Assembly: GCA_963781465.1 (NCBI GenBank)
Contig: CAWAGH010000007.1
Span: forward strand, 167,657-231,656
Length of the DNA stretch: 64,000 nucleotides
From: an uncultured Actinomycetota bacterium
Lineage (GTDB): Bacteria; Actinomycetota; Actinomycetes; Actinomycetales; Dermatophilaceae
Direction: 5' to 3'
Shown here: positions 11,756-27,372 of the stretch, in pieces
Layout: each line of letters opens with the position of its first letter
Position numbering within the stretch: position 1 is the stretch's first letter
Notes under the pieces: generated by a model
The model's database searches: none
Told to the model about the DNA's origin: nothing
What the model saw: the letters and a program-made list of their open reading frames with translations, nothing else
Position numbers and translations under genes: made by a program

Positions 11756-13841
11756 TCAGGATCCGAGCGTGAGCAGTCCCCAGTACCGCCGGTAGCCGCC
11801 ATCGCTCGCGGTGTGGTCGGCGACGTACCGTTGTTGCTGACCCGCGAGCGGATCCCGGTCTGGCTGCCGGCCGCGGGGTCCACGTCGCTGACGATGAGGT
11901 TCGCGCCGAACTGGGCACCGGCATACATCGTGGTCAGCCCACCGGCTTCGGGGAGCCGGATGACCGACCACGGCACGGCGGCCTCGACGGTGTACCCGTT
12001 CGACGATGTCACCGCCGCCGCCTTGACCGCGGGCGCGCTCCGACCCGCGTCGACGTCGAACGTCCGCCCGGAACCCACGGTGACGGCGGCCACGGCGCCC
12101 CCACCGCTGGGCCCGACGGAGAGCGAGACGTCGCCGGGGCTGAGGTTGCTGCCGTCGGCGTTGGCCCCTGAGGAGCCGAACTGGAGGGTCACCGCGTCGC
12201 CCTGGAACAGCCTGGCCGGGTTCGCCGCGTTGGTCGTCGTCAGCTCGGGGTCGAGGACCTGGGCCAGCAGGTCGAGGCTCTCGTCGTCCCAGCCGAGCGA
12301 CCAGAGGCCCTTGAGGGTGACACTGCCAGTGCCGACCGAGTCGTCGCCGCGACCATCGACTGCTCGGGGCGGTACTCAGCCGCCGCGGGGAGAATTGGGG
12401 GCCCTCCACCGGGCGGTAGGTCACGGTGGCCGTCGCCACCACGGGCGGTGCGACGCCGCCCGGTGAGGTGGTGGGCGGCGAGGAGGTCGCTGCGGGCGTA
12501 GAAGCGGCGGCCGGCCCCGCCTCGGGCGACCCGCTCGAACCGGCGCGGGTCACCGCGAACACGACGACCGCGACGAGCACGGCGGCGACAGCCGCGGCGA
12601 TCCCGATGAGGCGTCCGCGACCCGGCCGACCGGCCGGTGTTGGCGACGGGGTGGCAGGAGGGGCGGGCGGCGTAGACGGAGCCGGTGCGGGCCTAACCGG
12701 AGCCGGTATGCCGGTCGCCGCCGGGGTCCGCGGAGCCACCCCTCGAACACCTGGCCGTCGGGCGCGTTGAGGTAGAGCACCGGCGTGGCCCACTCGCTGG
12801 CGTACCCGGCCAGCAGGCCCTTGCGTGCGCTCGTGACGGCCTGGTCGACCGGCATACCGTCGGCGAGCGCCGCGTAGAACTCACCGGTGAACGCGGTGGC
12901 GGCGCCGTCGCTGATAGGGAACTGCATCGCGACGACCGCCGTGCAGTCCTGCTGGACGAGACGCTGGGCCATGCCGCTGAACGGGTCTGCGGCTCCGACG
13001 CCGGCCGGACTGGCACGCGGTGAGGAACACCAGCCGCAGCGGGTCGTGGTCGTGGAGGTACGGGCCGAGGACCGCGGGTGGGACGGCGACGCTGCGGCCG
13101 TCCTGGTCGCAGAAGTAGAGGACGCTCTCCTGCTGGCCCTCGTCGAAGTCGCCGTGCCCGATGACGTGCAGGACGTGCACCTCGTGCGAGCGCAGCCACG
13201 CCGCGAGGTCGGTCGTCGTGGGTGACGGCAGCCGGTCCAGCTGGACCGCGCCGGACGACACGCGGGTGGCGAGCATGTCCTGCATCCGCCGCCACTCGGC
13301 CTCGACGTCGAGCTCCGGCAGGTCGGTCGGTGACGAGAGGACGACGAGGATCCGCAGCGGCCCCTCGACGGTCAGCGGGCGCGGCGGGTGCGGTACCTCG
13401 AGGTAGCGGACGAGCGGAGTGCGTTCGGACTGCGCCGGGTACGAGTTCGTACGCCGGTCGACGAGCAGCTCCCACGGCAGTCCGGCGATCTCCGGAGCGT
13501 CGGTGAGCTGCAGCCGCAGCCGCAGCCCTTCACCTGTTTCACGCGTGGCGTCCTGGCTGCGGGTCCAGGCGAGGAGGACCTCCTCGCCGAACACCGCCTC
13601 GAACAGCGCGCCACCGAGCTCGGTCGACGCCTTGAACGCGGATCGGCGGTCGCGCGGCGCATCTGGGAGCGGCCCGGGTCGAGCTTCAGGAGCAGGTCTC
13701 CAGCTCGGTCGCGTCGAACGGCATCGCGAACGTCGCGGTCGCGCCGGCACCGACCGGGCTCGCCGCGACGCGGGAGCGGAAGGTGCCGTCGCCCGCGGAC
13801 TCGACCAGCAGGTCGAAGTTCTCGTATGCGCGCGCGCTCAT
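11756..13841 (-). pseudogene. decayed paralog A of the CHAT - TM - CBM9-like membrane protein family
   Basis: ATG 13841 (GAGGA upstream) opens MSARAYENFDLLVESAGDGTF..., which stops after 51 codons. Homology to the intact neighbour then continues through frames mod3 = 2,0,1,0,1,2,0,1. It passes LLLKLDPGRS, LPWELL, HVLHVIGHGDF, LVFLTACQSG, MAQRLVQQDCTAVVAMQFPISD, the TM helix IGIAAAVAAVLVAVVVFAV, WSLGWDDESL, YTVEAAVPWSV and the ending WGLLTLGS*. This implies at least seven frameshifts. Confidence 0.85.
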
Positions 13842-13867
13842 CCTGGGTCCTCACCGCTCGCGATCGG

Positions 13868-15880
13868 TCACGGCACCAGGGTCAGCGTGCTCCAGTGGTC
13901 CCGCCAGGAGCCAAGGCTGCCTGACAACGTGGCCGCTGGGTTGTTGGACACGACATCCAGTAGGCCGGCGCCGGCCTTGTCGCCAGCTTGTCGTGCGTAG
14001 AGGTTCATGCCCATCTGGGTGTAGTCGGCCGCGGCTGAACGGGACAGGGCAGACCAGGGAATGCGACCCTCGATGGTGTAACCAGACCCCGTCCCGGTAC
14101 CGAAAACGTTGACGCCGACGATGGATAGCGCCGTCCCGAACGCCGATCCGGCCGGGTTGGCTCCGAGGATCTGGGTCACCGACTGGTTCGTCTTCTGGAG
14201 CGGGGTCGCGATGAGCATGACGTCCTCCGGCTCCAGACTGAGGTTGTCGTGCGAAGGCGTGGCGGTACCGAGGTCGAAGCTCACTCCCGTGTTCGCGAGA
14301 ATGCGGTTGGCGTCGGCCTGGTCCGGCCCCAGCTGGGACCCCGAGACCGTGACGAAGAAGTACAGCGCGTTGTCGTCCCATCCGAGCTCCCAGGTGGAGG
14401 ACGTCGTCGCGGCCGCTCCCAGGACCAGCTTGTCGGTGGTCACGGTGGGTATGCGCGGCCAGTCGTCGTCGCGGCCGTCGATGGTCGGCGGTGTCGAAAG
14501 ATGGGCCGCGGTGATGGCCGGTCCCTTGAGCGTCGTGCCCGACCCCGGCGGAGGATCGGGGGTGAACGACTTCCAGATCGCGAAGACGAACCACCCGACG
14601 GACGCCGCGATCATGAGACCGATGAGGGCCCACGTGAGTTTGCCCCTCTGTCGAGGCGGCGATGGTGTACGCGCTGGGGGCCGGGTAGGTCCGGGCTGGG
14701 ACAGTCCGGGCTGGGGTGGTCGGGGCTGGGGCGGTCGGCCTGGGTCGGGCGGTGCCGTCCGGGGTCCATCCAGCACCGGCAGCTCGAACAGGACACCGTC
14801 GTCGGATCGCAGGTAGAGCACCGGGGTGGCCCACTCGCGGGGAAAGTCCATGAGCAGGCTCTTACGCGCCCCGGCCATGGCCTGGTCGACGGGGTACCCC
14901 CTGGCGATGGCCCGGTAGAGCGCGCGGCTGAACGTGCTGGCGGCGCGGTCGCTGACCGGGAACTGCATCGCCGCGACCGCACTGACGCTGTTCCGCACCA
15001 GGCCCTGGGCCATGCCACCGAAGACGTCGTGCGCGTCGCCTCGTGCCGAGTGACAGGCGTTGAGGACCACCAGCTTCAGGTCATGGACGTCCTGCAGGAC
15101 GGACCCGAGCCGGTCGGCACCGATGGGGTTCTTGGTGGAGTAGTTCGTGCAGAAGTAGACGACCCCCTCCTGGGTCGACTCGGCGAAGTCGCCGTGTCCG
15201 ACGAAGTGGACGATGTGGACTGGTGAGTCACTGAGCCGCTCGAGGAGCCGACCCGGGGTAGCGGGCTGTGGGAGTCGCTCGAGCCGGACGAGGCCGCGCG
15301 CGACGAGCGGGGCGAGCTCCTCGTTGACGGCGCGCCACTCGTTCTCGAGATCGAGCTCCGGGAGGTCGGTGGGCGAGGCGAGCACGAAGAGAATGGTGAG
15401 CGGACCGTCGACCCGGAGCGCGCCCGAACCCCGATCGCCGAGGAAGCGGATGACCGGCGTCGCCTCTGACTGCGCGGGGTACTGGTTGAGTCGCGCGTTG
15501 TACAGCAGTTCCCAGGGCAGTCCGGCCAAGACTGGGGCATCCGTCAGCTTCAGCCGAAGGCGAAGACCGTGCTCCCGAGCCCGGACGTGTTCCTGGGAAC
15601 GGATCCAGGCCTCGTGGACGTCCCCGCTGAACGCCGCCGAGTAGAGCGCCGCACCGAGCTCACGAGAGGCCGTCTCTCGTGGATCGCCGGAGCCCCCGCG
15701 CATGTCGCTTCGTCCCGGGTCGAGCTTGAGGAGCAGGTTCTCCAGCCTGGTCTCGTCCAGAGGGAAGGTGAAGCGGGCCGCGGGGGTCTCGTTGGAGGGA
15801 CAGGCCGTGACGCGGGCCTGGTAGCCGCCGTGCTCCTCCTCGATGAGGAGGTCGAAGTTCTCGTACTGTCGAGAGGCCAC
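13868..15880 (-). CDS. CHAT-domain (caspase-like) protease fused to one TM helix and an extracytoplasmic CBM9/DOMON-like domain (paralog B, intact)
   Basis: GTG 15880 lies 11 nt after the upstream stop. N-terminus VASRQYENFDLLIE...LENLLLKLDPGRS. CHAT core with LAGLPWELL, catalytic His HIVHFVGHGDF and Cys LVVLNACHSA. A Pro-rich linker, RQRGK + WALIGLMIAASVGWFVFAIW (positive-inside rule puts CHAT in the cytoplasm). The C-terminal domain PTIDGRDDDWP...WELGWDDNALYFFV...GVSFDLG...GYTIEGRIPWSAL...GMNLY matches the carbohydrate-binding family 9-like pattern. Confidence 0.85.
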   Translation of the reverse strand: MASRQYENFDLLIEEEHGGYQARVTACPSNETPAARFTFPLDETRLENLLLKLDPGRSDMRGGSGDPRETASRELGAALYSAAFSGDVHEAWIRSQEHVRAREHGLRLRLKLTDAPVLAGLPWELLYNARLNQYPAQSEATPVIRFLGDRGSGALRVDGPLTILFVLASPTDLPELDLENEWRAVNEELAPLVARGLVRLERLPQPATPGRLLERLSDSPVHIVHFVGHGDFAESTQEGVVYFCTNYSTKNPIGADRLGSVLQDVHDLKLVVLNACHSARGDAHDVFGGMAQGLVRNSVSAVAAMQFPVSDRAASTFSRALYRAIARGYPVDQAMAGARKSLLMDFPREWATPVLYLRSDDGVLFELPVLDGPRTAPPDPGRPPQPRPPQPGLSQPGPTRPPARTPSPPRQRGKLTWALIGLMIAASVGWFVFAIWKSFTPDPPPGSGTTLKGPAITAAHLSTPPTIDGRDDDWPRIPTVTTDKLVLGAAATTSSTWELGWDDNALYFFVTVSGSQLGPDQADANRILANTGVSFDLGTATPSHDNLSLEPEDVMLIATPLQKTNQSVTQILGANPAGSAFGTALSIVGVNVFGTGTGSGYTIEGRIPWSALSRSAAADYTQMGMNLYARQAGDKAGAGLLDVVSNNPAATLSGSLGSWRDHWSTLTLVP

Positions 15881-15891
15881 GGTGCCTCGCC

Positions 15892-16779
15892 TCAGCCCTC
15901 GAGATGGAGCGTGCCCCAGATGCTGCGGAACGGGGCGTCGTTGCCCTTCCGTGCGGGGTTGTTGCTCACGAACGAGCTGAGCTCGCCCGCCTTGGAACCG
16001 GTCGCGACGGAGTCGCTGACGTTGAGGTTCATGCCGTACTCGTTGCCGCCGGAGATGTTCTCGGCGCCGAGGGTCGACCACGGGATGGCCGCCTCGAGGA
16101 GGTAGCCGTCGTCGGTCTTCGCGGTCGCCGCGCGCAAGCCCTGGATGGTGTTCGGGCCGCGGGTGAAGACCGAGCCGTTCGGCACGTTGATCGCGCTGAT
16201 CACCTTGTCGTCGTTGAAGTTCGCCGGTCCGAGCAGGACGTGCTTGTCGCCGGTCTCGAGCGAGGCGTTCGCGTTCTTCGGCAGCGCGGTCCCGAACTCG
16301 AAGCTCACCCCGTCGCCCTTGAACAGCTGGGACGTGTCCGCAGCGTGAGTCTGCAGTTCGGTCCGGTCGAGGACGTGCACGATGGCGTACAGGTTCGAGT
16401 CGTCCCAGGCCAGCGCCCAACGGCCGAGCAGACCGGTGTCGCTTCCCGCGATGAGCACGTTGCTGTCGAAGGTCGGGATGTCGCTCGGCCAGTCGGACGC
16501 GTCCCCGTTGATGGTCAGGCCGGTCGACAGGTGGACCGCTGAGATCTTCGGTCCGGTCAGGGTGCTCGCCTCTCCGCCGTTGTTGCGCGTCGGGTCGACC
16601 TTCTCCGGCAGCTGCGTGCCGTACCAGTAGAGGCCGCCGAACACGACGGCCACGACCGCCAGGACGATGGTGATGATGAGGCCCCACCGAGGCTTCTTCG
16701 GGTTCGGCGGGTTCACGTACCGCAGCGGCGCCTGGCCGGGACCACTCTGCCGCGGAGGCTGCTGCTGCTGGGTCGGCAC
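15892..16779 (-). CDS. TM + CBM9/DOMON-like domain protein; C-terminal half of paralog C/D, detached by a frameshift
   Basis: GTG-initiated ORF (V)PTQQQQPPRQ...KKPRWGLIITIVLAVVAVVFGGLYWY, then TINGDASDWP...WALAWDDSNLYAIV...GVSFEFG...GYLLEAAIPWSTL...GMNLNV...IWGTLHLEG*. Collinear with the C-terminal half of paralog B. Its frame stays open upstream into the P/Q repeat of the preceding ORF. Confidence 0.7.
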   Translation of the reverse strand: MPTQQQQPPRQSGPGQAPLRYVNPPNPKKPRWGLIITIVLAVVAVVFGGLYWYGTQLPEKVDPTRNNGGEASTLTGPKISAVHLSTGLTINGDASDWPSDIPTFDSNVLIAGSDTGLLGRWALAWDDSNLYAIVHVLDRTELQTHAADTSQLFKGDGVSFEFGTALPKNANASLETGDKHVLLGPANFNDDKVISAINVPNGSVFTRGPNTIQGLRAATAKTDDGYLLEAAIPWSTLGAENISGGNEYGMNLNVSDSVATGSKAGELSSFVSNNPARKGNDAPFRSIWGTLHLEG

Positions 16780-18458
16780 CGGTTGCGTCGGCTGCTGCGG
16801 CTGGTACGTGGGCTGCTGTGCTGGTAGGTGGGCTGCTGCGGCTGCTGGTAGGTGGGCTGCTGTTGCTGGTAGCTCGGCTGCGGCTGGTAGGTCGGCTGCG
16901 GCTGCGGCTGCTGATAGGAGGTCGGCTGCGGCCGCGGCTGCTGATAGGTCGGCTGGTATGCGGGGGCGCTGGTCGGAGGGGGCGTCGCCGTCGTCGTCGG
17001 CATGGCCTGGGTCACCGGCGGGGCGGTCGTGGCGCTCGTCGCCGCCACGCCGGCTGTGGTCGCGGCGGCCGCCGCAGCGGCCCCGCGGAGCGGGACGGGT
17101 TCCGGGGTGGGCTCTTCCGCTCTCGCAGCGGCCGGCTCAGGCTCGGGTGTGGGAACGACGGGCTTGAGCTCCTCGGGCTGCACGCCGACTGGCTTCAGGG
17201 CCGGCGGCTCGAGCAGGGCCTCCTCCGCGGACTTGCGTTTCGTCTCCGTCGTCTCCGCGTCGGTGGCCAGCGCCTCCTGGGCGCGCTCCTCGTCCTCGGC
17301 TTCGACCTCGGGCGCCGGCGTGGGAACGGCGGTCACCGCGGGCTGGGCCACGATGTGGTCGAACACGCGGCCGTCCGGAGCGCGAAGGAACAGCACCGGG
17401 GTGGCCCACTCCGCTGCATACTCCGCGATGAGCGCCTTGCGTGCGCTGGTGGCCGCCTGGTCGACAGGGAAGCCGTCGGCGAGCGCACCGTAGAACTCAC
17501 CGGTGAACGCGGTCGCCGCGCCGTCGGAGATGGGGAACTGCATGGCGACGACCGCGGTGCAGTCCTGCTGGACGAGGCCCTGTGCCATCCCGCTGAACGG
17601 GTCGGTGCTGTCGACGCGCGCCGACTGGCAGGCGTTGAGCAGGACCAGCCGCAGCGGGTCGTGGTCGCGGAGGTAGGGACCGAGGACCGTCGGGCTGACC
17701 TTGGTACTACGTCCGTAGCGGTCTTGGAAGTAGACGACGCCGTCCTGGATCCGGTCGTCGTAGTCGCCGTGTCCGATGAAGTGCAGGATGTGAACGTCGT
17801 TCTGCCGCAACCACGCCGACAGCGCCTGGATCGTCGGTGCCGGCAGCCGGTCGATCTTCACCGTGCCCTGGGCGACCTTCGCGGCGAGCGCATCCTCTAC
17901 GCGTCGCCACTCGGCCTCGACGTCCAGCTCCGGCAGGTCGGTGGGCGAGGAGATGACGACGAGGATGCGCAGCGCACCGTCGACCATCAGCGGCCGCGGC
18001 GGCTGGGGCACCTCGAGGTAGCGGACCACCGGAGTGCGTTCGGACTGCGCGATGAAGCTGTTGCCGCGCCGGTCGTAGAGCAGCTCCCACGGCAGGCCGG
18101 CGATCGACGGCGCGTCGGTGAGTCGCAGCCGCAGTCGCAGGCCGTCGCCGTGGTCGCGGGCGTAGTCCTGGGACCGCTGCCAGGTCAGCATGATGTCCTC
18201 GGAGAAGACGCTCTCGAAGAGCGGACCGCCGAGGTCCATCGACGCCTGGCTCTGTGGGTCGGAACCGGCCCGCCGGGTGCCACTGCGCCCCGGGTCGAGC
18301 TTGAGCAGCAGGTTCTCCAGCTGGGTGGCGTCGAACGGCAGCGTGAACTTGCCGCTAGGGCACTCTCCGAGTGGGCTCGTCGTCACCCGAGCGCGAAACG
18401 AATCGCCCTCCGCCGCTTCGAGAAGGAGGTCGAAGTTCTGATAGGTCCTGGAGGCCAT
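16713..18458 (-). CDS. CHAT-domain protease; N-terminal part of paralog C/D, truncated by a frameshift in its P/Q-rich linker
   Basis: ATG 18458 (AAAGGG upstream). MASRTYQNFDLLLEAAEG...LENLLLKLDPGRS, IAGLPWELL, His HILHFIGHGDY, Cys LVLLNACQSA, GMAQGLVQQDCTAVVAMQFPISD. An E/P/A-rich then PTYQQ-repeat linker runs out of frame near 16819-16820 into an Arg/Ser-rich tail, with a stop at 16713. Confidence 0.75.
   Translation of the reverse strand: MASRTYQNFDLLLEAAEGDSFRARVTTSPLGECPSGKFTLPFDATQLENLLLKLDPGRSGTRRAGSDPQSQASMDLGGPLFESVFSEDIMLTWQRSQDYARDHGDGLRLRLRLTDAPSIAGLPWELLYDRRGNSFIAQSERTPVVRYLEVPQPPRPLMVDGALRILVVISSPTDLPELDVEAEWRRVEDALAAKVAQGTVKIDRLPAPTIQALSAWLRQNDVHILHFIGHGDYDDRIQDGVVYFQDRYGRSTKVSPTVLGPYLRDHDPLRLVLLNACQSARVDSTDPFSGMAQGLVQQDCTAVVAMQFPISDGAATAFTGEFYGALADGFPVDQAATSARKALIAEYAAEWATPVLFLRAPDGRVFDHIVAQPAVTAVPTPAPEVEAEDEERAQEALATDAETTETKRKSAEEALLEPPALKPVGVQPEELKPVVPTPEPEPAAARAEEPTPEPVPLRGAAAAAAATTAGVAATSATTAPPVTQAMPTTTATPPPTSAPAYQPTYQQPRPQPTSYQQPQPQPTYQPQPSYQQQQPTYQQPQQPTYQHSSPRTSRSSRRNRCRPSSSSLRGRVVPARRRCGT
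16760..16960 (-). repeat. degenerate tandem P/T/Y/Q-coding repeat (CAGCAGCCSACSTACCAG-like units)
   Basis: The minus strand encodes AYQPTYQQPRPQPTSYQQPQPQPTYQPQPSYQQQQPTYQQPQQPTYQ, then after a 1-nt loss QQPTYQPQQPTQPVPTQQQQPP. The plus strand shows the repeated GGCTGCTG / CTGGTAGGT pattern. Confidence 0.8.
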
Positions 18459-18635
18459 CGCCGGCCCTTTCGCACGGTTCCGTCTACCTGAAATGGTGGA
18501 GCCGCGAGCTGACGCGATGATACCGCTGTAACCGCATCGGTATGTGGGCATTCGTTCCGTGGTCCGCCGCCCAGAACCCTTCCGCCGCGTCCGTCGCATA
18601 CCGGACGATGACTACATCGAGGATGCCCGGACGAC

Positions 18636-21155
18636 ATGCGGGGTATCTGCCCCTCGCTCGACGACTCCGTGAGGATCGTGGGACCCATGCCAGGAGTGGA
18701 CGCGTGGTGCGCGTTGGCCGACCAGGTCGTCGCCGCCAACGACCCCGCGATCGCGGACCGCGCGAAGACCGTGCTGGTCAGCCTCGGCGTGACCGACGAC
18801 GAGCGCGCCGAGCTCGCGGCGACGATCCGCGGGCGGGAGGACCCGGCCGGCCTGCTGCTCGCGCACGTGGTGGGGAACGCGCATGCCGACCTGTCCGACG
18901 ACGCACCGGTGACCAGCTCCGCGACGCCGGACCAGATGGACGCCGCCCTGGCGCTCTCGGGTCAGCTGCTCGCGGGTCCGGCCGCCACCATGGCGGCTCG
19001 CCTGGGTGCCGCCGCCCGAGACGTCCTGGCCCACCTGCCGGCCGATGCCGCCGGCTCGCTCGTCTCCGGCCTCGTCACCGCCTCGCTGTCGATGACCGAC
19101 CCGGCGATGCGGACCGCAGCCCTGACCACGGTCGTCGACGCCACCAGCGACGTGACGATGGGCCGGCTCCCGGTGGCGACCGTGGTGACCGAAGTGGTGC
19201 GTGCGGCCCCGCCCGACGCGGACCGCGAGCTGGTGGCGAAGCTGCTGGCCCGCACGTCGTCGTCGCGGCTGCTCTCGGGCGTGCTCGACTCCCTGCGTGA
19301 CGGCACCGAACCCCGGGCGGTCCTGGAGCTCCTCGAGCGGGTGGCCCTGCTGCGCGACACACAGGCACCACCGCCACCGACGGCGGCCGCCGACCGCGAG
19401 ATCGACCTCGGCGCAACGCCGGAGCCGTCCGACGTCACCTTCCGCGGCCCGGGCGGCGGCCACGCGGAGATCGCGCCCAGGCCGCCGCCGAAGCCCGCCG
19501 AACCCGCGCAGGAGCAAGCGCCCGGCGGAGTCCTGCGGTCCGCATACCCGCGCATCGACGTCGACGCCCATCGCGAGGTCCGCCCTGAGGTCGTCGTCCT
19601 CGACGAACCGTTCGACGTGGTCGTGGGGCTGGCCAAGTTCCAGGACGCGACGATCACCCAGACCGGTGCCATGCGGTTCATGGCCGGCGCAACGACCGAG
19701 CTCGAGCTGGTCCTCGTCTACGACCCGAACTCCCTGAAGGCGCAAGGCGATACGCGGCTGACCGTCAACGTCAGCGACGCCGACCCGTACCCCACGGCCA
19801 CGGTTTCGTTCGTCGCGACGTACCGGCCCGACCTGCCCAGCGAGCGGCGGATCGGCGTTCACTACATCGTCGGCGGCCAGGTGGTGGGCATCGCCTGGCG
19901 CAGCCTGATCGCCGTCCCCTACGCCAAGGACGTCGCGAACGCCCCCACGCCCCAAGCCGGTCCGGACGCACTGATGGAGCTCGAACCCCTGCTGGGCGTG
20001 GACCAACCCGAGCTCATCCTGTCGATCTGCGCCTCGGACGGTGCCGCCACGGGAGAGTTCATCTGGACGGCGTATGCGGCGGCCTCCGACGTGACGGTGC
20101 CGGACGCCCCGCGGTCCTCGAGGCTCGACTCCGACCTCCAGGGCTTCGTCACCGACATGCGGCAGACCGTCTCCCGCGCGCAGGGTCCGTACGAGGAGTA
20201 CCTGTCGCTGGCCGGAGCGGCCATCCGCATGGGGCGGGCGGTTCCGGACGGGATCCAAGGCGTGCTGCGGAAGGTCGTGGAGGACCCGGCGCGCACCACG
20301 GCGCCGACGATCCTGCTCCTGACCGAGGAGGTGACGCTGCCCTGGGAGCTCGCCGTCTTCGACCCACCGCTCGACAGCGCGTGGGGCGGGATCTCGCCCT
20401 TCCTCGGCTCCCACGCGGCGATCGCGCGATGGCCGCTCAGCGAGAAGCGTCCACGGCCGACACCGAGGTCGGCGGTCGCCGTGAAGCGGGCGGCGGTCCT
20501 CACGGCCGACTACACGGGCGTCATGGGGTGGGGTGAGCTGAAGGAGGCCCAGGAGGAGGCCGACTACGTCACCACGTTGTTCACCTCGACGTTCCCGGTG
20601 ATCCCCTCGATCGACGACGTCATCGACCTGCTCAGCGGGAACCCGTCCGCGGACGTCCTGCACGTTGCCCTGCACGGGCAGTTCGACGCACGAGGGGACG
20701 AGGGCGGCCTGGTCCTGCTCGCCAAGGACGCGGCCGGGAACCTCACGACGACCGCCCAGTTCCTCAAGCCGGACCAGGTCCTCAACGGGCGCCTCGACAA
20801 CGGTCCGTTCGTCTTCCTCAACGCCTGCCAGGTGGGTTCCGACAAGCGGGTGCTCGCCGACAACGGCGGGTTCGCCTCGACGTTGCTGCAGATCGGGGCC
20901 ACCGGGGTCGTGGCTCCACTGTGGAACGTCAACGACGTGACCGCCGCCGAGTGCGCCCGCGCCTTCTACGCCGCGACGTGGAGCGCGACCGGCGAGGGCG
21001 ACGCGTCGACCCGGGTGTCGGCGGCGGAGGCGGTTCGGTCGCTGCGGGCGAAGTACACCCAGTCGGCCGCACAGACCGCGACTCCCGGGATCGACGCGAC
21101 GCTGATCGCCTTCCAGGTGTTCGGCCACCCTCGGCTGCGCCTCGACCGAGGCTGA
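18636..21155 (+). CDS. large soluble CHAT-domain protein with uncharacterised N-terminal regions
   Basis: 839-aa ORF; ATG 18636, with an alternative ATG at 18687. About 240 aa of Ala/Leu-rich helical region, a Pro-rich linker, a beta-rich segment (PFDVVVGLAKF...ELELVLVYDP...TATVSFVATYRP). C-terminal CHAT domain with TLPWELAVF, His VLHVALHGQF and Cys FVFLNACQVG. No TM segment, TPR repeat or NTPase motif noticed. Confidence 0.8.
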   Translation: MRGICPSLDDSVRIVGPMPGVDAWCALADQVVAANDPAIADRAKTVLVSLGVTDDERAELAATIRGREDPAGLLLAHVVGNAHADLSDDAPVTSSATPDQMDAALALSGQLLAGPAATMAARLGAAARDVLAHLPADAAGSLVSGLVTASLSMTDPAMRTAALTTVVDATSDVTMGRLPVATVVTEVVRAAPPDADRELVAKLLARTSSSRLLSGVLDSLRDGTEPRAVLELLERVALLRDTQAPPPPTAAADREIDLGATPEPSDVTFRGPGGGHAEIAPRPPPKPAEPAQEQAPGGVLRSAYPRIDVDAHREVRPEVVVLDEPFDVVVGLAKFQDATITQTGAMRFMAGATTELELVLVYDPNSLKAQGDTRLTVNVSDADPYPTATVSFVATYRPDLPSERRIGVHYIVGGQVVGIAWRSLIAVPYAKDVANAPTPQAGPDALMELEPLLGVDQPELILSICASDGAATGEFIWTAYAAASDVTVPDAPRSSRLDSDLQGFVTDMRQTVSRAQGPYEEYLSLAGAAIRMGRAVPDGIQGVLRKVVEDPARTTAPTILLLTEEVTLPWELAVFDPPLDSAWGGISPFLGSHAAIARWPLSEKRPRPTPRSAVAVKRAAVLTADYTGVMGWGELKEAQEEADYVTTLFTSTFPVIPSIDDVIDLLSGNPSADVLHVALHGQFDARGDEGGLVLLAKDAAGNLTTTAQFLKPDQVLNGRLDNGPFVFLNACQVGSDKRVLADNGGFASTLLQIGATGVVAPLWNVNDVTAAECARAFYAATWSATGEGDASTRVSAAEAVRSLRAKYTQSAAQTATPGIDATLIAFQVFGHPRLRLDRG

Positions 21156-21176
21156 CCACACTCACGAAGGAGCGCG

Positions 21177-22664
21177 ATGGCTGAGAACCTGCGGCCCGAA
21201 GGAATCCCCGTCACCGTCGGGACCGTTCGGATCTCCACGCCCGGGCTGACCGGTCGCGTCGAGGTGTACCAACCGGGGACCGCCGGGATGCGCGGCGCGG
21301 AGAGCTCGACCGAAGCGTTCCGCCGGGCCCTCGACCAGGGCGGCGTGGTGGAACAGCTCACCGTCGAGATCACCGGCCAGCGCGAGCTGGACAACGCCGG
21401 TGGGAGCCGCGGCGGTGGGGGCGGTAGCGAGATCGTGGTCGAGGTCCCGCCCCCGGGCACCGGCAACGGCCAGCTGCTCCTGTATGCGGCCGAGGACGGT
21501 TCGCTCTCGTGGCACCTTCCGGACGACGTGCCACCGGAGCAGGTGGTCAGCCGCGGCGGAGACCGGCGCACGTACCGGCTGCCGCGGGAGGTGGTCCTGG
21601 CTGACCCGGCCTCAGCCGGTGGGCAGCGCGGCATCCTCGGGGCGGTCGGGTCGAAGCTGTTCAAGATCCTCGTGTTCCCGCTCATCGACCCGATCCTCGG
21701 CAAGGTCGGCGACTACTTCGCCGCTCGGTGGGAGCAGAAGAACCGGCGCAACCTCGTGCGGTGGTTCGACCCGGGCGACTACCAGCGCTCCGACGTCGTA
21801 GCCTTCGCGGCGCCGGACTGGACGCGGGTGAGCGGCGGCACGGCGCTCCTGTTCATCCACGGCACGACCGCGCAGTCCAACACGGCGTTCGACCAGCTCC
21901 CGGCCGAGACCCTGACCGAGCTTGGACGTCGTTACGGCGGAAGGGTGTTCGCGCTCGACCACTTCACCATCTCGGTGACGCCGCACGACAACGTGACGTG
22001 GCTGGCCGAGCAGCTCGCGGCGCTCGGAGGCGGTTCTCCGCTCACGCTCGACCTCGTCAGCCACTCGCGCGGCGGCCTCGTCGGTCGCGTCCTCGCCGAA
22101 CGAGCCGCCGACGTCGGGCTGGCCGGCAAGGTCACGGTGCGCAACTTCGTCATGGTCGCCTCGCCCAACGCCGGAACGGCGCTCGCCGACAAGGCGCACC
22201 TGTCGCAGCTGATGGACCGCGTCACCGACCTCGCCCAGTTCATCCCCGACGCCGGCGTGACCGACGTCGTCGGGCTGGTGCTGTCGATCCTCAAGCAGCT
22301 CACCGTCGGCGCGTACGGCGGCCTCGAGGGCGTCATGGCGATGGACCCGCAGGGCGAGTACCTCAAGGCGTTCAACAGCACACCGGGCTCGACGGCGACC
22401 TACCGGGCGATCGGGTCGAACTACCAGCCGGCGCGCGGCGCGTCACTGGCCCGCATCGCCCGGAACGCCGGCACCGACTTCGTGTTCCAGAAGGCGGACA
22501 ACGACCTCGTCGTCCCCACCAACGGGGCATACGAGGTCGACGGTGTGGTGGGGTTCCCGATCGCCGACCCCCTGGTCTTCCCCGCCGAGGCGGGCGTCGA
22601 CCACGCGTCGTACTTCACCCGTCCTGAGGTCTCGGCGAAGCTCCTGGAGTGGCTCCCGGGGTGA
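21177..22664 (+). CDS. alpha/beta-hydrolase fold protein (lipase/esterase-like) with a ~190-aa N-terminal extension of unknown function
   Basis: ATG 21177 preceded by GAAGGAG, 21 nt after the CHAT gene stop. Hydrolase core: LLFIHGT (oxyanion region), nucleophile elbow LVSHSRGGLV, candidate Asp in KADNDLVVP, candidate His in GVDHASYF. The N-terminal part (VTVGTVRISTPGLTGRVEVY...GGGGG...LLLYAAEDGSLSW) matches nothing I recognise. Confidence 0.75.
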   Translation: MAENLRPEGIPVTVGTVRISTPGLTGRVEVYQPGTAGMRGAESSTEAFRRALDQGGVVEQLTVEITGQRELDNAGGSRGGGGGSEIVVEVPPPGTGNGQLLLYAAEDGSLSWHLPDDVPPEQVVSRGGDRRTYRLPREVVLADPASAGGQRGILGAVGSKLFKILVFPLIDPILGKVGDYFAARWEQKNRRNLVRWFDPGDYQRSDVVAFAAPDWTRVSGGTALLFIHGTTAQSNTAFDQLPAETLTELGRRYGGRVFALDHFTISVTPHDNVTWLAEQLAALGGGSPLTLDLVSHSRGGLVGRVLAERAADVGLAGKVTVRNFVMVASPNAGTALADKAHLSQLMDRVTDLAQFIPDAGVTDVVGLVLSILKQLTVGAYGGLEGVMAMDPQGEYLKAFNSTPGSTATYRAIGSNYQPARGASLARIARNAGTDFVFQKADNDLVVPTNGAYEVDGVVGFPIADPLVFPAEAGVDHASYFTRPEVSAKLLEWLPG

Positions 22665-23352
22665 GATGCCGCGTCGCCTCGCGTCTCGACAGGCCGGACA
22701 GCTCTCCGGCGTGGGTGTCGACGAAGGCGCGCACCCAGTCCGGCGCCACGCGGGCGTGATCGCGCAGTGCCCACCCGATCGCCTTGCGGATGAAGAAGTC
22801 CCGGTCGGCGAGGTTCGGCTCGATGGCGTCGGTGAGCAGGTCCTGGTCCAGCCGCTCCTTGCGCCCGACCTGGCCGATGATGGCGGTCCGGCGCAGCCAG
22901 AGGTGCTCGTCGACGGCCCACTCGCGCAGCCGCAGCCCCTCGACGTCAGGTGCGCCCTCGAGCACCTCGCGGACCAGGTGCGTCGCGACCTCGTCGACGA
23001 CGTCCCACCACGCGCCGGTCACGACGAGATGCCGCCAGAGCGGCATGGACTCGCTGTCGAGCCACGAGCGGTAGGCGCGGTACCGCGCGAGGGCGATCGC
23101 CGCATACCACTCCTCGCGGTATGCGACCTCGTCCCACAGGGCGCGGATGGTCGCCTCCCACTCCTCCCGGCCGGCTATCCGGAAGCCGGGGTCGGCGAGG
23201 ATCGGGCGCAGGACCGCGGTGAGCTGTGGCGAGGTGAGCCCGCGGTAGGGGAGCGCGGACTTCATATAGCGCTGCTGGCCCGAGGCCCTCTCAGGGTCGG
23301 CGTGCCGGGCCAGCTCGGCACGGATCGTCTCGACGAGGTCGTGGTGGACCAC
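22615..23352 (-). CDS. DNA alkylation repair enzyme family protein (AlkD-like HEAT-repeat protein)
   Basis: GTG 23352 lies 1 nt after the upstream stop. QQRYMKSALPYRGLTSPQL, WWDVVDEVATHLV, FFIRKAIGWALRDHAR are typical of this family. The 3' end overlaps the convergent hydrolase gene by 50 nt. Confidence 0.75.
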   Translation of the reverse strand: MVHHDLVETIRAELARHADPERASGQQRYMKSALPYRGLTSPQLTAVLRPILADPGFRIAGREEWEATIRALWDEVAYREEWYAAIALARYRAYRSWLDSESMPLWRHLVVTGAWWDVVDEVATHLVREVLEGAPDVEGLRLREWAVDEHLWLRRTAIIGQVGRKERLDQDLLTDAIEPNLADRDFFIRKAIGWALRDHARVAPDWVRAFVDTHAGELSGLSRREATRHLTPGATPGASPRPQDG

Positions 23353-23641: not shown

Positions 23642-23935
23642 GGTGGACACGCCGAAACTGGTTCGTGACTTTCTGTTGTCCACAGGTGGTGGACGACGAT
23701 CCGGGCACGTCGCCCCGCACGAGCGGCGCCGAACCTGGGAGAACCATGCACCGGTCCTCCCCAGGTTGTCCCCAGGCTGTTCCGGCGTGGTGCACACCGT
23801 TGTCCACACCTGGTCCACAGGATGGGTTTGTACCTCGACCCCGGCACCCCTAGCGTGACAGCGCGCCAGCGTCGCCCAGCCCGAACCACCCTGATCCGGT
23901 GGCTGTCGGCGGTCGATGGTGCCATGAGTGGACAC
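23642..23935. promoter_or_regulatory. cluster of DnaA-box-like 9-mers in the dnaB upstream region
   Basis: Perfect TTGTCCACA at 23676-23684 and 23800-23808. One-mismatch boxes TTGTCCCCA (23766-23774) and TGGTCCACA (23811-23819). Two-mismatch boxes on the opposite strand around GTGGAC at 23642-23650, 23688-23696 and 23927-23935. Confidence 0.6.
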
Positions 23936-23996
23936 CAGTTCGAACGGCCAGCTCGGAAAGGAACGCGAGGCGCGGTGGCGACCAGGTGACCCTCAC

Positions 23997-26444
23997 ATGA
24001 CGATCCAGGAGCTCTTCCCACAACGGACAGACGGGCCGACGGACGACCGGCTCCCGCCCCAGGACCTGCACGCGGAGCAGTCAGTCCTCGGCGGCATGCT
24101 GTTGTCCAAGGACGCCATCGCCGACTGTGTCGAGGTACTCCGGTCGGCCGACTTCTACCGCCCGCAGCACGAGGCGATCTTCGATGCGGTCCTCAGCCTC
24201 TACGGCCGGGGTGAGCCGGCCGACGCGATCACCGTGTCCGACGAGCTCGGCAAGCGCGGTGACCTCGGTCGGGTCGGCGGCCAGGCCTACCTCCACCAGC
24301 TGATCTCCTCGGTGCCGACCGCGGCCAACGCCGGCTACTACGCGCAGATCGTCGCCGAGCGCGCGGTGCTGCGGCGGCTGGTCGAGGCGGGCACCAAGAT
24401 CGTCCAGCTCGGCTACGCCCAGGGTGGGGGCGACGTCGAGGACATCGTCAACGCGGCCCAGGCCGAGGTCTACGCCGTCGTCGACAAGCGGGGCGGCGAG
24501 GACTACCACCGGCTCGGCGACATCCTCGAGATGACCGTCGACGAGATCGAGGTCGCGTCCGGCAAGTCCGGCGAGATGACGGGTGTGCCGACCGGATTCA
24601 CCGACCTCGACTCGCTCACCAACGGGCTGCACCCGGGCCAGATGATCGTCGTCGCGGCAAGGCCCGCTATCGGGAAGTCGACTCTCGGACTCGACATCGT
24701 CCGGTCGGCGTCGATCCGGCACAACCTCGCCTCGGTCATCTTCTCGCTCGAGATGAGCAAGACCGAGATCACCATGCGGCTACTCTCCGCCGAGGCCGGG
24801 ATCCAGCTGCAGCACATGCGCAAGGGCACCATGCGTGAGGAGGACTGGACCCGCCTGGCGTCGACGATGGGCCGGGTGTCCGAGGCGCCGCTGTTCATCG
24901 ACGACTCACCGAACATGAACCTCATGGAGATCCGGGCCAAGTGCCGACGGCTCAAGCAGCGCGACAACCTCAAGCTGGTCGTCATCGACTACCTCCAGCT
25001 GATGTCCTCCGGCAAGCGAGTCGAGTCGCGGCAGCAGGAGGTCTCGGAGTTCTCGCGAGCGCTCAAGCTGCTCGCCAAGGAGCTCGAGGTCCCGGTCGTC
25101 GCGATCTCCCAGCTCAACCGTGGTCCGGAGCAGCGCACCGACAAGAAGCCGCAGATGTCCGACCTTCGCGAGTCGGGGTGCCTGACTGCGGAGACGCGGA
25201 TTTTGCGGGCGGATACCGGCGCCGAGATGTCGATGGGCGAGCTGCTGGCCAGTGGGGAGACCGACGTCCCCGTCTGGTCGCTCGACGAGTCGCTGCGCTA
25301 CGTCCGCCGGCACCTGACCCACGTCTTCTCGACCGGTACGCGTCCGGTATTCCGACTGACGCTCGCCTCGGGGAAGCAGGTCCGGGCAACCGAGAACCAC
25401 CCCTTCCTCACGTATGCGGGCTGGCGCGCACTGGGTGACCTGCGCACCGGCGACCGGCTGGCGGTGCCTCGTCACGTGCCCGCCCCGGATCGGTTCGAGC
25501 ACCCGCTCAGCGACGAAGAGGTCCGGATGGGCGCCGTCCTGATGTCGTCTCGGACGACGGCCCGGGCATCCGCGCGGACGCAGGTCCTCGGCTGCCGCCT
25601 CGGCTTCGACGTCATGCCGGCGGCGTCGCGGCGGCTGCCGCCGGATATCGCATCGTTCCCCAAGCGACAGATCGCGCTGTTCCTCCAGAGTCTCTGGGCC
25701 GTCGATGGCCGGACCACCGTCAACACCGAAGGGACGGACGGACGCATCGTCTTGCGTGCGAAGTCACGCCAGCTCCTCGACGACGTCGTGATGTTGCTCT
25801 TGCGGTTCGGCATCTCGGGGGAGGTGTTGGCGCGTCGACAGGGCTGGGAGCTGCACATCCCCGGTGTCGACGACCAGCGTCGGTTCCTTCAGGAGGTAGC
25901 CGTCCATGGGGCGTTGTCGGAAGATGCCCATCAGCTGCTCGCCATCGTCCGGGCCAGGCGTGAGCGAGCGTCGGCAGTCGTCCGCGGCGCGGGCGGAGAC
26001 GACGTTGTCGACCGTGAGGGCGCGGCGGGATGGCCACTCAGCAGCGACGACATCGCCGACGAGCTGGTCGAGGAGGGCGCCTTTGACCTCGAGCGAGCAG
26101 CCGAGCTCCTGGCGAGCCTGGATCTCGACCTCGAGGCCTCCAACGACGTGCTGTGGGACGAGGTCGTCGCCGTCGAGCCGGACGGTGTCGAGGAGGTCTT
26201 CGACGCCACCGTTGCGGGCGGCCACAACTTCGTGGCCAACGGGATCGCCGTGCACAACTCGATCGAGCAGGACGCTGACATGGTGATCCTGTTGCACCGC
26301 GAGGAGGCCTACGAGCGGGAGAGCCCACGCGCCGGTGAAGCCGACCTCATCGTGGCCAAGCACCGCAACGGGCCCACCGACACGATCGTGCTGGCGTTCC
26401 AGGGCCACTACAGCCGGTTCACCAACATGGCGCCCAGCTTCTGA
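23997..26444 (+). CDS. dnaB: replicative DNA helicase DnaB (intein-containing precursor)
   Basis: ATG 23997 with AGGTGA 8 nt upstream. PPQDLHAEQSVLGGMLL, Walker A AARPAIGKST, VVIDYLQLM, VVAISQLNRGPEQR. The host sequence resumes after the intein with SIEQDADMVILLHREEAY...HRNGPT. The mature extein product would be about 455 aa. Confidence 0.95.
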   Translation: MTIQELFPQRTDGPTDDRLPPQDLHAEQSVLGGMLLSKDAIADCVEVLRSADFYRPQHEAIFDAVLSLYGRGEPADAITVSDELGKRGDLGRVGGQAYLHQLISSVPTAANAGYYAQIVAERAVLRRLVEAGTKIVQLGYAQGGGDVEDIVNAAQAEVYAVVDKRGGEDYHRLGDILEMTVDEIEVASGKSGEMTGVPTGFTDLDSLTNGLHPGQMIVVAARPAIGKSTLGLDIVRSASIRHNLASVIFSLEMSKTEITMRLLSAEAGIQLQHMRKGTMREEDWTRLASTMGRVSEAPLFIDDSPNMNLMEIRAKCRRLKQRDNLKLVVIDYLQLMSSGKRVESRQQEVSEFSRALKLLAKELEVPVVAISQLNRGPEQRTDKKPQMSDLRESGCLTAETRILRADTGAEMSMGELLASGETDVPVWSLDESLRYVRRHLTHVFSTGTRPVFRLTLASGKQVRATENHPFLTYAGWRALGDLRTGDRLAVPRHVPAPDRFEHPLSDEEVRMGAVLMSSRTTARASARTQVLGCRLGFDVMPAASRRLPPDIASFPKRQIALFLQSLWAVDGRTTVNTEGTDGRIVLRAKSRQLLDDVVMLLLRFGISGEVLARRQGWELHIPGVDDQRRFLQEVAVHGALSEDAHQLLAIVRARRERASAVVRGAGGDDVVDREGAAGWPLSSDDIADELVEEGAFDLERAAELLASLDLDLEASNDVLWDEVVAVEPDGVEEVFDATVAGGHNFVANGIAVHNSIEQDADMVILLHREEAYERESPRAGEADLIVAKHRNGPTDTIVLAFQGHYSRFTNMAPSF
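25179..26258 (+). mobile_element. DnaB intein (360 aa) with a probable degenerate LAGLIDADG homing-endonuclease insert
   Basis: Starts RESG|CLTAETRIL and ends FVANGIAVHN|SIEQD. Block B ATENHPFLTYAGWRALGDL and the C-terminal WDEVVAVEPDGVEEVFDATVAGGHNFVANGIAVHN closely resemble the Synechocystis DnaB mini-intein. The central ~200 aa keeps one LAGLIDADG-like motif (ALFLQSLWAVDGR; LLLRFGISG), while the expected first motif looks degenerate. Confidence 0.9.
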
Positions 26445-26611: not shown

Positions 26612-27372
26612 GTGGGAATCCTGGACGACAAGGTCGCGGTGGTGACGGGTGCGGCGCGCGGGATCGGACGGGCGACCCTCGAGGTGTTCCTCGAGGAGGG
26701 CGCCCGCGTCGTGGCGACCGACATCGACGGCGACGCGTTGAGCCGGACGGTCGCGGCGACGGGGCGCGGTACTGAGCGGCTCGTCATGGTCGTCGGAGAT
26801 GTCTCGGTGGAGGCCGACGCCGAGGCGATGATCGCGGCGGCCACGCGGACCTGGGGCCGCCTGGACTGCCTGGTGGCGAACGCCGGGGTGATCCCGCTCA
26901 GCACCATCGACCAGACCTCGGTCGACGACTGGGAGCACGTCATGGCGGTGGACGGCCGCGGCATGTTCCTCACCTGCCGCGCCGCCATCCGGGTGATGGC
27001 CGAACGGGGCAGCGGAAGCATCGTGAACCTGTCGTCGATCAGCGGGCTGCCGGCCAGGCGGGCCAGGCCGCATACGGACCGGCGAAGTTCGTGGCCACGG
27101 GACTCACCAAGCACCTGGCCGTCGAAGGGGCCGGCCGTGGCATCCGGGTGAACGCCGTCGCGCCGGGCACGATCCGGACCGACGCGATCGACGAGATCCT
27201 CCGCAGTGCGTCTGGTCGTCAGTACGTGACCCAGATGGAGGCGCAGCATCCGATGGGTCGCCTCGGCGATCCTCGTGAGGTGGGTCAGGCCATCGCGTTC
27301 CTTGCTTCGGACCGAGCCAGCTTCATCACCGGCGAGGTGCTCGCCGTCGACGGCGGCTACCTGGCTCAGTGA
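26612..27372 (+). pseudogene. short-chain dehydrogenase/reductase (SDR) with a single frameshift
   Basis: ORF 26612..27151 gives VAVVTGAARGIGRA...NAG...IVNLSSISGL, then out-of-frame Arg-rich text. ORF 27091..27372 in another frame supplies the rest (AAYGPAKFVATGLTKHLAVEGAGRGIRVNAVAPGTIRT...FITGEVLAVDGGY). The catalytic YxxxK straddles the break. A 1-nt indel lies near 27046-27052. Confidence 0.8.

Follow-up and report, generated by a model that had tools for sequence, protein, structure and literature searches.

In prokaryotic immunity and regulated cell death, effectors that kill once licensed by a protease are increasingly recognised as a dominant design. The closest described system to the one addressed here is the LcCaspase-LcHydrolase module, in which two cuts by the Peptidase_C14 protease LcCaspase, at R73|G and R117|G, release toxic fragments from LcHydrolase (Evans et al., bioRxiv 10.1101/2025.11.14.688446). 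The HHpred affinities of LcHydrolase are lipase-like (Evans et al., bioRxiv 10.1101/2025.11.14.688446). The module had been predicted before, and in the VMAP ternary systems caspase-superfamily domains always occur with a neighbouring alpha/beta-hydrolase (Kaur et al. 2020, eLife, PMC7159879). Here, we address a two-gene operon from an uncultured Actinomycetota bacterium of the Dermatophilaceae, found on contig CAWAGH010000007.1 (assembly GCA_963781465.1) in a stretch of 64,000 nucleotides (nt), referred to as the window. The operon joins the gene of a CHAT protease, CHAT(+), to that of an alpha/beta-hydrolase bearing the Pfam domain DUF7379. The two are very likely functionally coupled as an obligate pair, judging from the comparison of related loci. 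We also give slightly better than an even chance to the reading that CHAT(+) activates the hydrolase by cleavage at Arg-small sites, chiefly R151|G152, which would make the latter a protease-gated lipase-type effector.

Like LcCaspase-LcHydrolase, the window operon places a gene for a clan-CD cysteine protease beside one for a lipase-like alpha/beta Ser-hydrolase, the hydrolase of each carries conserved Arg-Gly dipeptides, and both modules occur in Actinobacteria. The licensing of a latent toxic enzyme by site-specific proteolysis has been shown for LcCaspase-LcHydrolase and is proposed for the window operon. The preliminary description of this locus had drawn an analogy with protease-activated effectors, and LcCaspase-LcHydrolase supplies that analogy with an experimentally shown, R|G-activated counterpart (10.1101/2025.11.14.688446). 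LcHydrolase, however, is a protein of 296 amino acids (aa) whose cuts fall within the hydrolase fold, whereas the window hydrolase comprises 495 aa and carries its candidate sites in a separate N-terminal domain of 151 aa. LcCaspase is a Peptidase_C14 and the window protease a CHAT protein (PF12770), although DUF7379 is fused to C14 elsewhere. Unlike LcCaspase-LcHydrolase, the window pair is without VMAP, STAND or WD40 sensor fusions. Homology between the two hydrolases beyond the level of the superfamily was considered and rejected; with the LcHydrolase sequence taken from the supplement of Evans et al., hhalign aligned the two over no more than 38 columns, at the nucleophile elbow, with a probability of 20%, and the DUF7379 profile did not match LcHydrolase. 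DUF7379 is not among the ten effector families surveyed in that work (10.1101/2025.11.14.688446). As far as sequence can tell, the window operon would resemble the LcCaspase-LcHydrolase module in its working, but would not be a member of it.

Craspase and the bacterial gasdermin systems offer further parallels. Type III-E Craspase also has a helical-repeat region before its CHAT protease, and it cleaves a dedicated neighbour, Csx30. However, Cas7-11, a CRISPR RNA (crRNA) array and Csx30/31 are not among the window neighbours, and clustering revealed no cas gene in 79 related loci. The putative substrate in the window is a hydrolase and not a sigma-factor regulator, and the activation signal must differ. 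In bacterial gasdermin systems, an adjacent caspase-like protease, often a CHAT protein, removes an inhibitory segment from a membrane-damaging effector, an arrangement that is only proposed for the window pair. The window effector is a lipase-fold enzyme with a catalytic triad, unlike the pore-forming gasdermins, and its candidate inhibitory part is a folded N-terminal domain rather than a short C-terminal peptide. No gasdermin match for the pair was found in Pfam or PADLOC.

The CHAT(+) gene occupies positions 18636-21155 of the plus strand (839 aa), with its TGA stop codon at 21153-21155. The hydrolase gene follows at 21177-22664 on the same strand (495 aa, ATG at 21177), encoding an N-terminal beta-rich candidate pro-domain and an alpha/beta-hydrolase core. 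The gap between the stop codon and the start is 21 nt, and a Shine-Dalgarno sequence, GAAGGAG, lies at 21166-21172 (+), 4 nt upstream of the hydrolase ATG. The GC content at third codon positions (GC3) is 0.91-0.92 for both open reading frames (ORFs) in a window of ~71% GC, and both are therefore regarded as real genes. The preliminary description had read them as a two-gene CHAT/alpha-beta-hydrolase operon; all of its coordinates, the GAAGGAG sequence and its motifs were confirmed, and the co-occurrence, coupling spacing and Rosetta-stone fusions described below agree with it. In the window the two genes also share a reading frame, with the TGA and seven codons between them. Programmed read-through from CHAT(+) into the hydrolase was considered and rejected, because the frame relation differs among loci (in frame in 18 of 68) and is hence a coincidence.

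The pairing extends well beyond the window. A species-level scan of ~185,000 genomes, one per species, found relatives in 419, and 79 loci from these were retrieved for neighbourhood analysis. Full-length hydrolase homologues, with the N-terminal extension included, share 53-96% identity at 100% coverage. A CHAT homologue, identified by tblastn with the window CHAT(+), immediately precedes the hydrolase gene, in the same orientation, at 74 of the 79 loci, so the homologues are not mostly unpaired. Two of the remaining loci are contig-edge cases, which gives ~74 of 77; at L073 a CHAT gene of 1211 aa overlaps the hydrolase start, and the only loci without an adjacent CHAT gene are L075, L077 and L078. 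Pairs were found in Actinomycetota, Acidobacteriota, Nitrospirota and Chloroflexota. Across 68 junctions the stop codon of the CHAT gene and the start codon of the hydrolase gene are a median of 20 nt apart (range -23 to +88), with 14 overlaps of the -4/-8 type and with GGAG-type Shine-Dalgarno motifs preceding the hydrolase start. When all neighbouring ORFs were clustered, the CHAT family and the hydrolase alone were conserved, while the flanks change from one higher taxon to the next, with synteny inside each. A third conserved neighbourhood gene was looked for, and none was found besides CHAT paralogues.

The same linkage is written into single polypeptides. An exhaustive search with the N-terminal 200 aa of the hydrolase yielded 353 representatives, and the long matches are natural fusions in four architectures: a Peptidase_C14 caspase followed by the N-terminal domain (N-domain) and DUF7379; the N-domain and DUF7379 followed by CHAT, as in protein P0307, whose C-terminal part matches the window CHAT at aa 317-832 (E = 1e-46); CHAT followed by the N-domain and DUF7379; and DUF4384 followed by the N-domain and DUF7379. 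With P0307 as query, 371 proteins were recovered, among them dozens of C14 fusions and about 15 CHAT fusions, the C14 type being far commoner. The C14 fusions come from Gemmatimonadota, Planctomycetota, Rubrivirga, Solirubrobacter, Variovorax, Verrucomicrobiota and Vicinamibacterales. Giant chains of 1840-1940 aa, from Ilumatobacteraceae and other Acidimicrobiia, unite the N-domain, a DUF7379/PGAP1-like hydrolase, CHAT and PF20308 (P0387, P0390, P0394, P0397, P0417 and P0418). Since the hydrolase is a neighbour of these proteases or is fused to them in either order, it is tied to two distinct clan-CD protease families. The view that the genes are unrelated and adjacent by coincidence has practically no probability left; it is effectively refuted by the pairing in ~74 of 77 informative loci, the tight or overlapping junctions, and the fusions in both orders with two protease families.

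The upstream partner is predicted, from its sequence and its model, to be an active clan-CD cysteine protease of the Craspase/separase type. Pfam CHAT (PF12770) matches CHAT(+) at aa 608-783 with 63.6 bits against a gathering score of 24. The AlphaFold2 (AF2) model, with a mean predicted local distance difference test (pLDDT) score of 79.3, comprises a helical-repeat N-domain (aa 19-243, nt 18690-19364), a disordered Pro-rich linker (aa 244-297, nt 19365-19526), a confidently modelled beta-sandwich (aa 300-496, nt 19533-20123), a helical bundle (aa 501-548) and a caspase-like CHAT domain (aa 558-839, nt 20307-21152), all on the plus strand. The catalytic dyad consists of His680, followed by Gly681 (nt 20673-20678, +), and Cys731 in the motif NACQ (nt 20826-20828, +). 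Both dyad residues are invariant in a 35-sequence CHAT alignment and are kept in at least 93% of 61 upstream CHAT proteins. A PDB search with the CHAT(+) sequence alone gave no match. With the model, Foldseek found Csx29/TPR-CHAT, the separase protease domain and gingipain R at probability 1.00, the top structural match being Craspase Csx29 (8eex_B, E = 2.6e-9). DdvA, a CHAT-containing anti-sigma factor, is also among the structural neighbours, and the complement C3 MG domains resemble the beta-domain.

The part of CHAT(+) that is conserved throughout the family is aa ~300-839 only. The N-terminal 240 aa had been described as a helical sensor; the helices stand in the model, but a system-defining sensor does not, as this region is variable; most homologues lack it or have another in its place, and it occurs chiefly in Intrasporangiaceae and some Nocardioides. 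HEAT repeats take its place in L066 and L067. The helical region may still act as a sensor, without being a defining part of the system. The linker contains the motif [F/W]-R270-G271 (nt 19443-19448, +), and [F/W]-R270-[G/S] is kept in 32 of 39 sequences that possess the linker. The Arg-small signature of the hydrolase N-domain recurs in R270-G271, at which CHAT(+) could process itself or be cut within a cascade.

The hydrolase core, likewise, is that of a plausible enzyme. Pfam DUF7379 (PF24096) matches aa 224-400 with 177.8 bits against a cut-off of 33, covering the whole profile (1-191), and weak Pfam matches to PGAP1, palmitoyl-thioesterase and DUF676 lipase-type domains fall at the nucleophile elbow. 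The elbow is of the x-H-S-x-G type on an alpha/beta-hydrolase fold. The preliminary description had proposed a Ser-Asp-His set, and the triad of Ser297 (VSHSRGG, nt 22065-22067), Asp443 (NDLVVP, nt 22503-22505) and His476 (VDHASY, nt 22602-22604), all on the plus strand, bears this out, being invariant in the family alignment and in every divergent representative that covers these positions. The AF2 model shows a beta-rich N-terminal region (aa ~1-170), an alpha/beta core from about aa 190, and a helical lid. Foldseek places the core with family I lipases and the phospholipase PlaB, and a PDB sequence search returned 7x2p, a putative lipase (1.3e-7). PADLOC and NCBIfam scans of CHAT(+) and the hydrolase gave nothing useful, and a literature search on DUF7379, DUF7362 and PDB 7x2p found no papers and no characterised DUF7379 member. 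The protein is thus best described as a putative cytoplasmic lipase- or phospholipase-like Ser-Asp-His enzyme, whose substrate is suggested by the modelled fold only.

The N-domain (aa 1-151, nt 21177-21629, +) is the candidate pro-domain. The beta-rich character given to it in the preliminary description is seen in the AF2 model. The glycine-rich run GGSRGGGGGSE at aa 75-85, once read as a Gly5 hinge, is instead the conserved motif G-[ST]-R78-x-x-G-G. The resemblance of the CHAT(+) middle segment to the N-domain does not hold as homology, with an hhalign probability of 0.6%. No unrelated enzymatic domain matched the extension; the sole match is the uncharacterised DUF7362 (PF24062), of which the N-domain appears to be a distant relative, and which scores 18.3 bits for the window N-domain, below the 27.6-bit cut-off. 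Among six isolated N-domains, DUF7362 is the only or top Pfam match in five, collinear in each case and always sub-threshold (17.6-26.1 against 27.6 bits). N-domain and core occur together in 224 of 260 proteins; the remaining 36 include 35 truncated fragments, and the core occurs alone in none. The idea of the N-domain as a mobile adaptor shared among effector types was rejected, as it is always joined to a DUF7379 core in these 260 proteins.

Conservation within the N-domain is concentrated on few residues, and arginine is prominent among them. Nine positions of the N-region are at least 85% conserved among 123 divergent representatives, and R151 is the strongest residue of the domain, being present in 119 of them; G152 comes next, with G in 104 and S in 14, which makes R151-G152 the best-kept residue pair of the domain. 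Conserved Arg-[G/A/S] sites lie at R39 (nt 21291-21293), R78 (21408-21410), R126 (21552-21554) and R151 (21627-21629), all on the plus strand. All four conserved N-domain arginines are followed by G, A or S, often with T or S before, compared with one of five arginines in the core, where the sole case is the buried HSRGG elbow. A [T/S]-R-[G/S/A] pattern can be read at these N-domain positions even in the most divergent fusions. In the AF2 model, the loops of lowest confidence (pLDDT <50) are aa 73-82 and 140-156, which contain R78 and R151, respectively. The R151-G152 dipeptide stands at the boundary between the N-domain and the core, directly before the most hydrophobic segment of the protein. 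The most hydrophobic 19-mer begins at residue 152 (GILGAVGSKLFKILVFPLI, Kyte-Doolittle 1.74), and the candidate main cleavage site R151|G152, together with the hydrophobic Gly-rich segment GILGAVGSKLFKILVFPLIDPILG (aa 152-175), would occupy nt 21627-21701 (+).

These features suggest how the pair may work. The hydrolase would be made as a latent pro-enzyme, with aa 1-151 keeping the core inactive or away from its substrate. Upon some trigger, activated CHAT(+) would cut it after the conserved arginines that precede Gly, Ala or Ser. The key cut would fall at R151|G152, the boundary of pro-domain and core, while cuts at R39, R78 and R126 may take the pro-domain apart. The released core would expose a new hydrophobic, Gly-rich N-terminus (aa 152-175), which may steer the enzyme to the membrane, and the membrane-bound core would then attack lipids, leading to cell arrest or death, whether as an anti-phage response or as another form of regulated cell death. 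This protease-gated zymogen reading is well motivated, because R151-G152 matches the R|G double cleavage shown for LcCaspase/LcHydrolase. It is also supported by the structural neighbours of CHAT(+), as these include the Arg-specific separase and gingipain R.

Several points weigh against this reading. CHAT proteases are not uniformly Arg-specific, as Craspase cuts Csx30 at a non-Arg site. The excess of Arg-small dipeptides in the N-domain over the core has a Fisher p of 0.048 resting on nine residues. The AF2 model of the hydrolase has a mean pLDDT of 68.7 and was built from a 16-sequence alignment, so that its low-confidence loops may reflect a thin alignment and not flexibility. R151-G152 is kept in the membrane-anchored forms of ~710 aa at L077 and L078, which have no adjacent protease; R151 could therefore be structural, or those genomes could encode the protease at another locus. 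The CHAT(+)/hydrolase pair carries no recognisable sensor domain (STAND, SAVED, TIR and similar). As to an immune role, PADLOC-DB v2 gave no match for CHAT(+) or the hydrolase, and 125 neighbour families gave sparse, generic defence-model matches only, being mostly metabolic or housekeeping, with no defence-island enrichment. Given these housekeeping neighbours, the missing PADLOC match and the within-genus synteny, an immune role is unsupported by context.

The forms at L077 (6849-9458) and L078 are DUF7379 proteins of Acidimicrobiia (P0364-type), with an extra N-terminal region that resembles a transmembrane segment followed by a beta-region. A hidden protease in that region was considered and rejected, since it has no caspase-type motif; Pfam scans of P0221 and P0236 revealed no domain besides DUF7379.

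The retention of R151 in forms without an adjacent protease also bears on an alternative that we consider unlikely, in which the obligate pairing is not that of a protease with its substrate. The two proteins would instead be co-effectors, or a complex in which the N-domain docks onto the CHAT beta-sandwich without an activating cut, the targets of CHAT(+) being other proteins of the cell or of a phage and the lipase-like enzyme working in parallel. Operon conservation and fusions demonstrate linkage and not direction, and the N-domain is never found apart from the hydrolase core, as would be expected of an integral structural or docking domain. Effector-less caspase-like defence proteases, possibly acting by broad proteolysis, have been described (Evans et al., 10.1101/2025.11.14.688446). 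However, the [T/S]-R-[G/S/A] pattern at four loop positions, even in very divergent fusions, is hard to ascribe to docking alone, and all characterised protease-adjacent effector modules act through effector cleavage. An always-active cytoplasmic lipase would, moreover, be toxic, and a latency mechanism would therefore be needed.

The direction of the linkage could also be reversed: CHAT would be the effector, and the hydrolase would act as its sensor or activator by means of the N-domain or of a lipid or ester ligand. This would suit a CHAT(+) without a canonical sensor domain, whose N-terminal region is variable or absent, and the greater conservation of the hydrolase across genera (about 60% identity, against 44% for CHAT(+)). 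We hold it to be highly improbable, as the invariant triad and lipase fold are typical of effectors, the conserved Arg-small motifs sit in the hydrolase, and the precedents all go from protease to effector.

Further candidates for the sensing role lie on the other side of the operon, where the preliminary description had missed a group of divergent transmembrane CHAT paralogues. Three tandem CHAT(-) copies stand upstream of the operon and divergent from it (11830-18458, minus strand). Copy A (15895-18458, -) matches Pfam CHAT and CBM9_1, and comprises a CHAT domain, a Q/P-rich linker, a transmembrane helix (nt 16621-16686) and a CBM9-like ectodomain. A tblastn comparison with an intact 819-aa orthologue from L027 revealed that copy A is split over two frames inside the Q/P-rich repeat (YQQPQPQPTYQ..., ~16750-16940), the cause being a sequencing slip or a genuine indel in this low-complexity repeat. 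Copy B (13868-15880, -) is intact at 670 aa, with His229 and Cys276, a Pro-rich linker, a transmembrane helix at aa 415-436 (nt 14573-14638) and a CBM9-like ectodomain. Copy C (11830-13841, -) is degraded, its reading frame shifting five times or more when aligned with an intact 773-aa orthologue from L014. Its segments reach up to 95-98% identity with that orthologue and the adjacent genes are clean, and it could be a pseudogene or a cluster of assembly errors.

The general layout of CHAT(-) is an N-terminal CHAT domain, predicted to be cytoplasmic and with its dyad intact, followed by a Pro/Gln-rich linker, a single transmembrane helix and an ectodomain of 245-350 aa. The succession of CHAT domain, transmembrane helix and ectodomain is present in 23 of 23 full-length orthologues examined, the ectodomain being CBM9-like in Intrasporangiaceae and of another type in Nocardioides. 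DdvA (PDB 8rw5/8rot) is likewise a single-pass membrane protein with a CHAT domain. CHAT(-) differs from it in its N-terminal, predicted cytoplasmic CHAT domain and its CBM9-like or other ectodomain, and no anti-sigma domain or extracytoplasmic function (ECF) sigma partner was seen beside CHAT(-). A divergent CHAT(-) is present in 30 of 69 loci. Its persistence across two orders while the flanks change, and its better conservation than CHAT(+) (~64% against ~44% identity), suggest that it is functionally linked to the operon. The CHAT(-) paralogues appear better sensor candidates than the helical N-terminus of CHAT(+), and hint at a cascade.

Such a cascade would have three tiers, running from a transmembrane CHAT(-) sensor through CHAT(+) to the DUF7379 lipase, and so to the membrane and cell death. 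The CHAT(-) ectodomain would sense a cue from outside the cytoplasm, for instance damage to the cell wall, the adsorption of a phage or a kin/non-kin signal, and CHAT(-) would activate CHAT(+), for example by cutting its linker at [F/W]-R270|G. CHAT(+) would then strip the hydrolase pro-domain at R151|G152, and the hydrophobic N-terminus would drive membrane entry. We offer this scheme as a speculation, and in its full form a rather improbable one. If true, it would be a bacterial counterpart of the series of receptor, initiator caspase, executioner caspase and membrane effector, set in a housekeeping context and not in a defence island.

The same CHAT(-) proteins, with transmembrane helix and ectodomain in 30 of 69 loci, fit another reading that we judge doubtful, that of a non-immune and possibly non-lethal function in envelope or lipid remodelling or in developmental signalling. 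CHAT(-) would sense a cell-wall or carbohydrate cue and, via CHAT(+), mature a pro-lipase acting on membrane lipids or lipoproteins. CHAT proteins such as HetF act in development. The housekeeping flanks, a chromosomal position conserved within each genus, beside dnaB in the Lapillicoccus group, and the lack of a defence-island signal all agree with such a role. On the other hand, the patchy cross-phylum spread (the 419 genomes above) and the flanks that differ between families look like a horizontally spread accessory module, lineages with many conflict systems abound in related fusions, and the closest characterised analogues are death effectors. The patchy spread and the related fusions favour a regulated-toxicity module, while the immune or cell-death role of the operon is uncertain.

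The surroundings of the operon in the window consist of the CHAT paralogues, a MatE gene, a DNA-alkylation-repair gene, a DUF2277 gene and dnaB. The 177-bp divergent intergenic region (18459-18635), between the start of CHAT(-) copy A (18458) and that of CHAT(+) (18636), presumably holds the promoters of both; a scan of it for the sigma-70 consensus gave no match, this consensus being uninformative for an actinomycete. At the other end, the hydrolase gene overlaps by ~50 nt (22615-22664) with the 3' end of the convergent DNA-alkylation-repair gene (~22615-23350, -; PF08713), and a terminator scan found no terminator-like hairpin between the two 3' ends. As the downstream genes are convergent, the plus-strand operon comprises exactly two genes. 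Beyond the repair gene lie the DUF2277 gene and then dnaB (23928-26444, +), which is split by an intein with a LAGLIDADG homing-endonuclease domain; dnaB orthologues at related loci reach ~1400 aa, which suggests a variable intein content. A short-chain dehydrogenase ORF (26612-27151, +) matches positions 1-140 of the 195 in the adh_short profile, and may be truncated or frameshifted.

The DUF7379 core and its obligate N-domain, tied to caspase-like proteases in the operons of at least 419 species-level genomes and in hundreds of fusions from many phyla, are a strong candidate for a further widespread family of lipase-fold effectors. The transmembrane CHAT partner could couple extracytoplasmic sensing to intracellular proteolysis. 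If the proposal is true, it would give a function to two Pfam domains of unknown function (DUFs), and would widen the range of enzymatic effectors under the control of bacterial caspase relatives.

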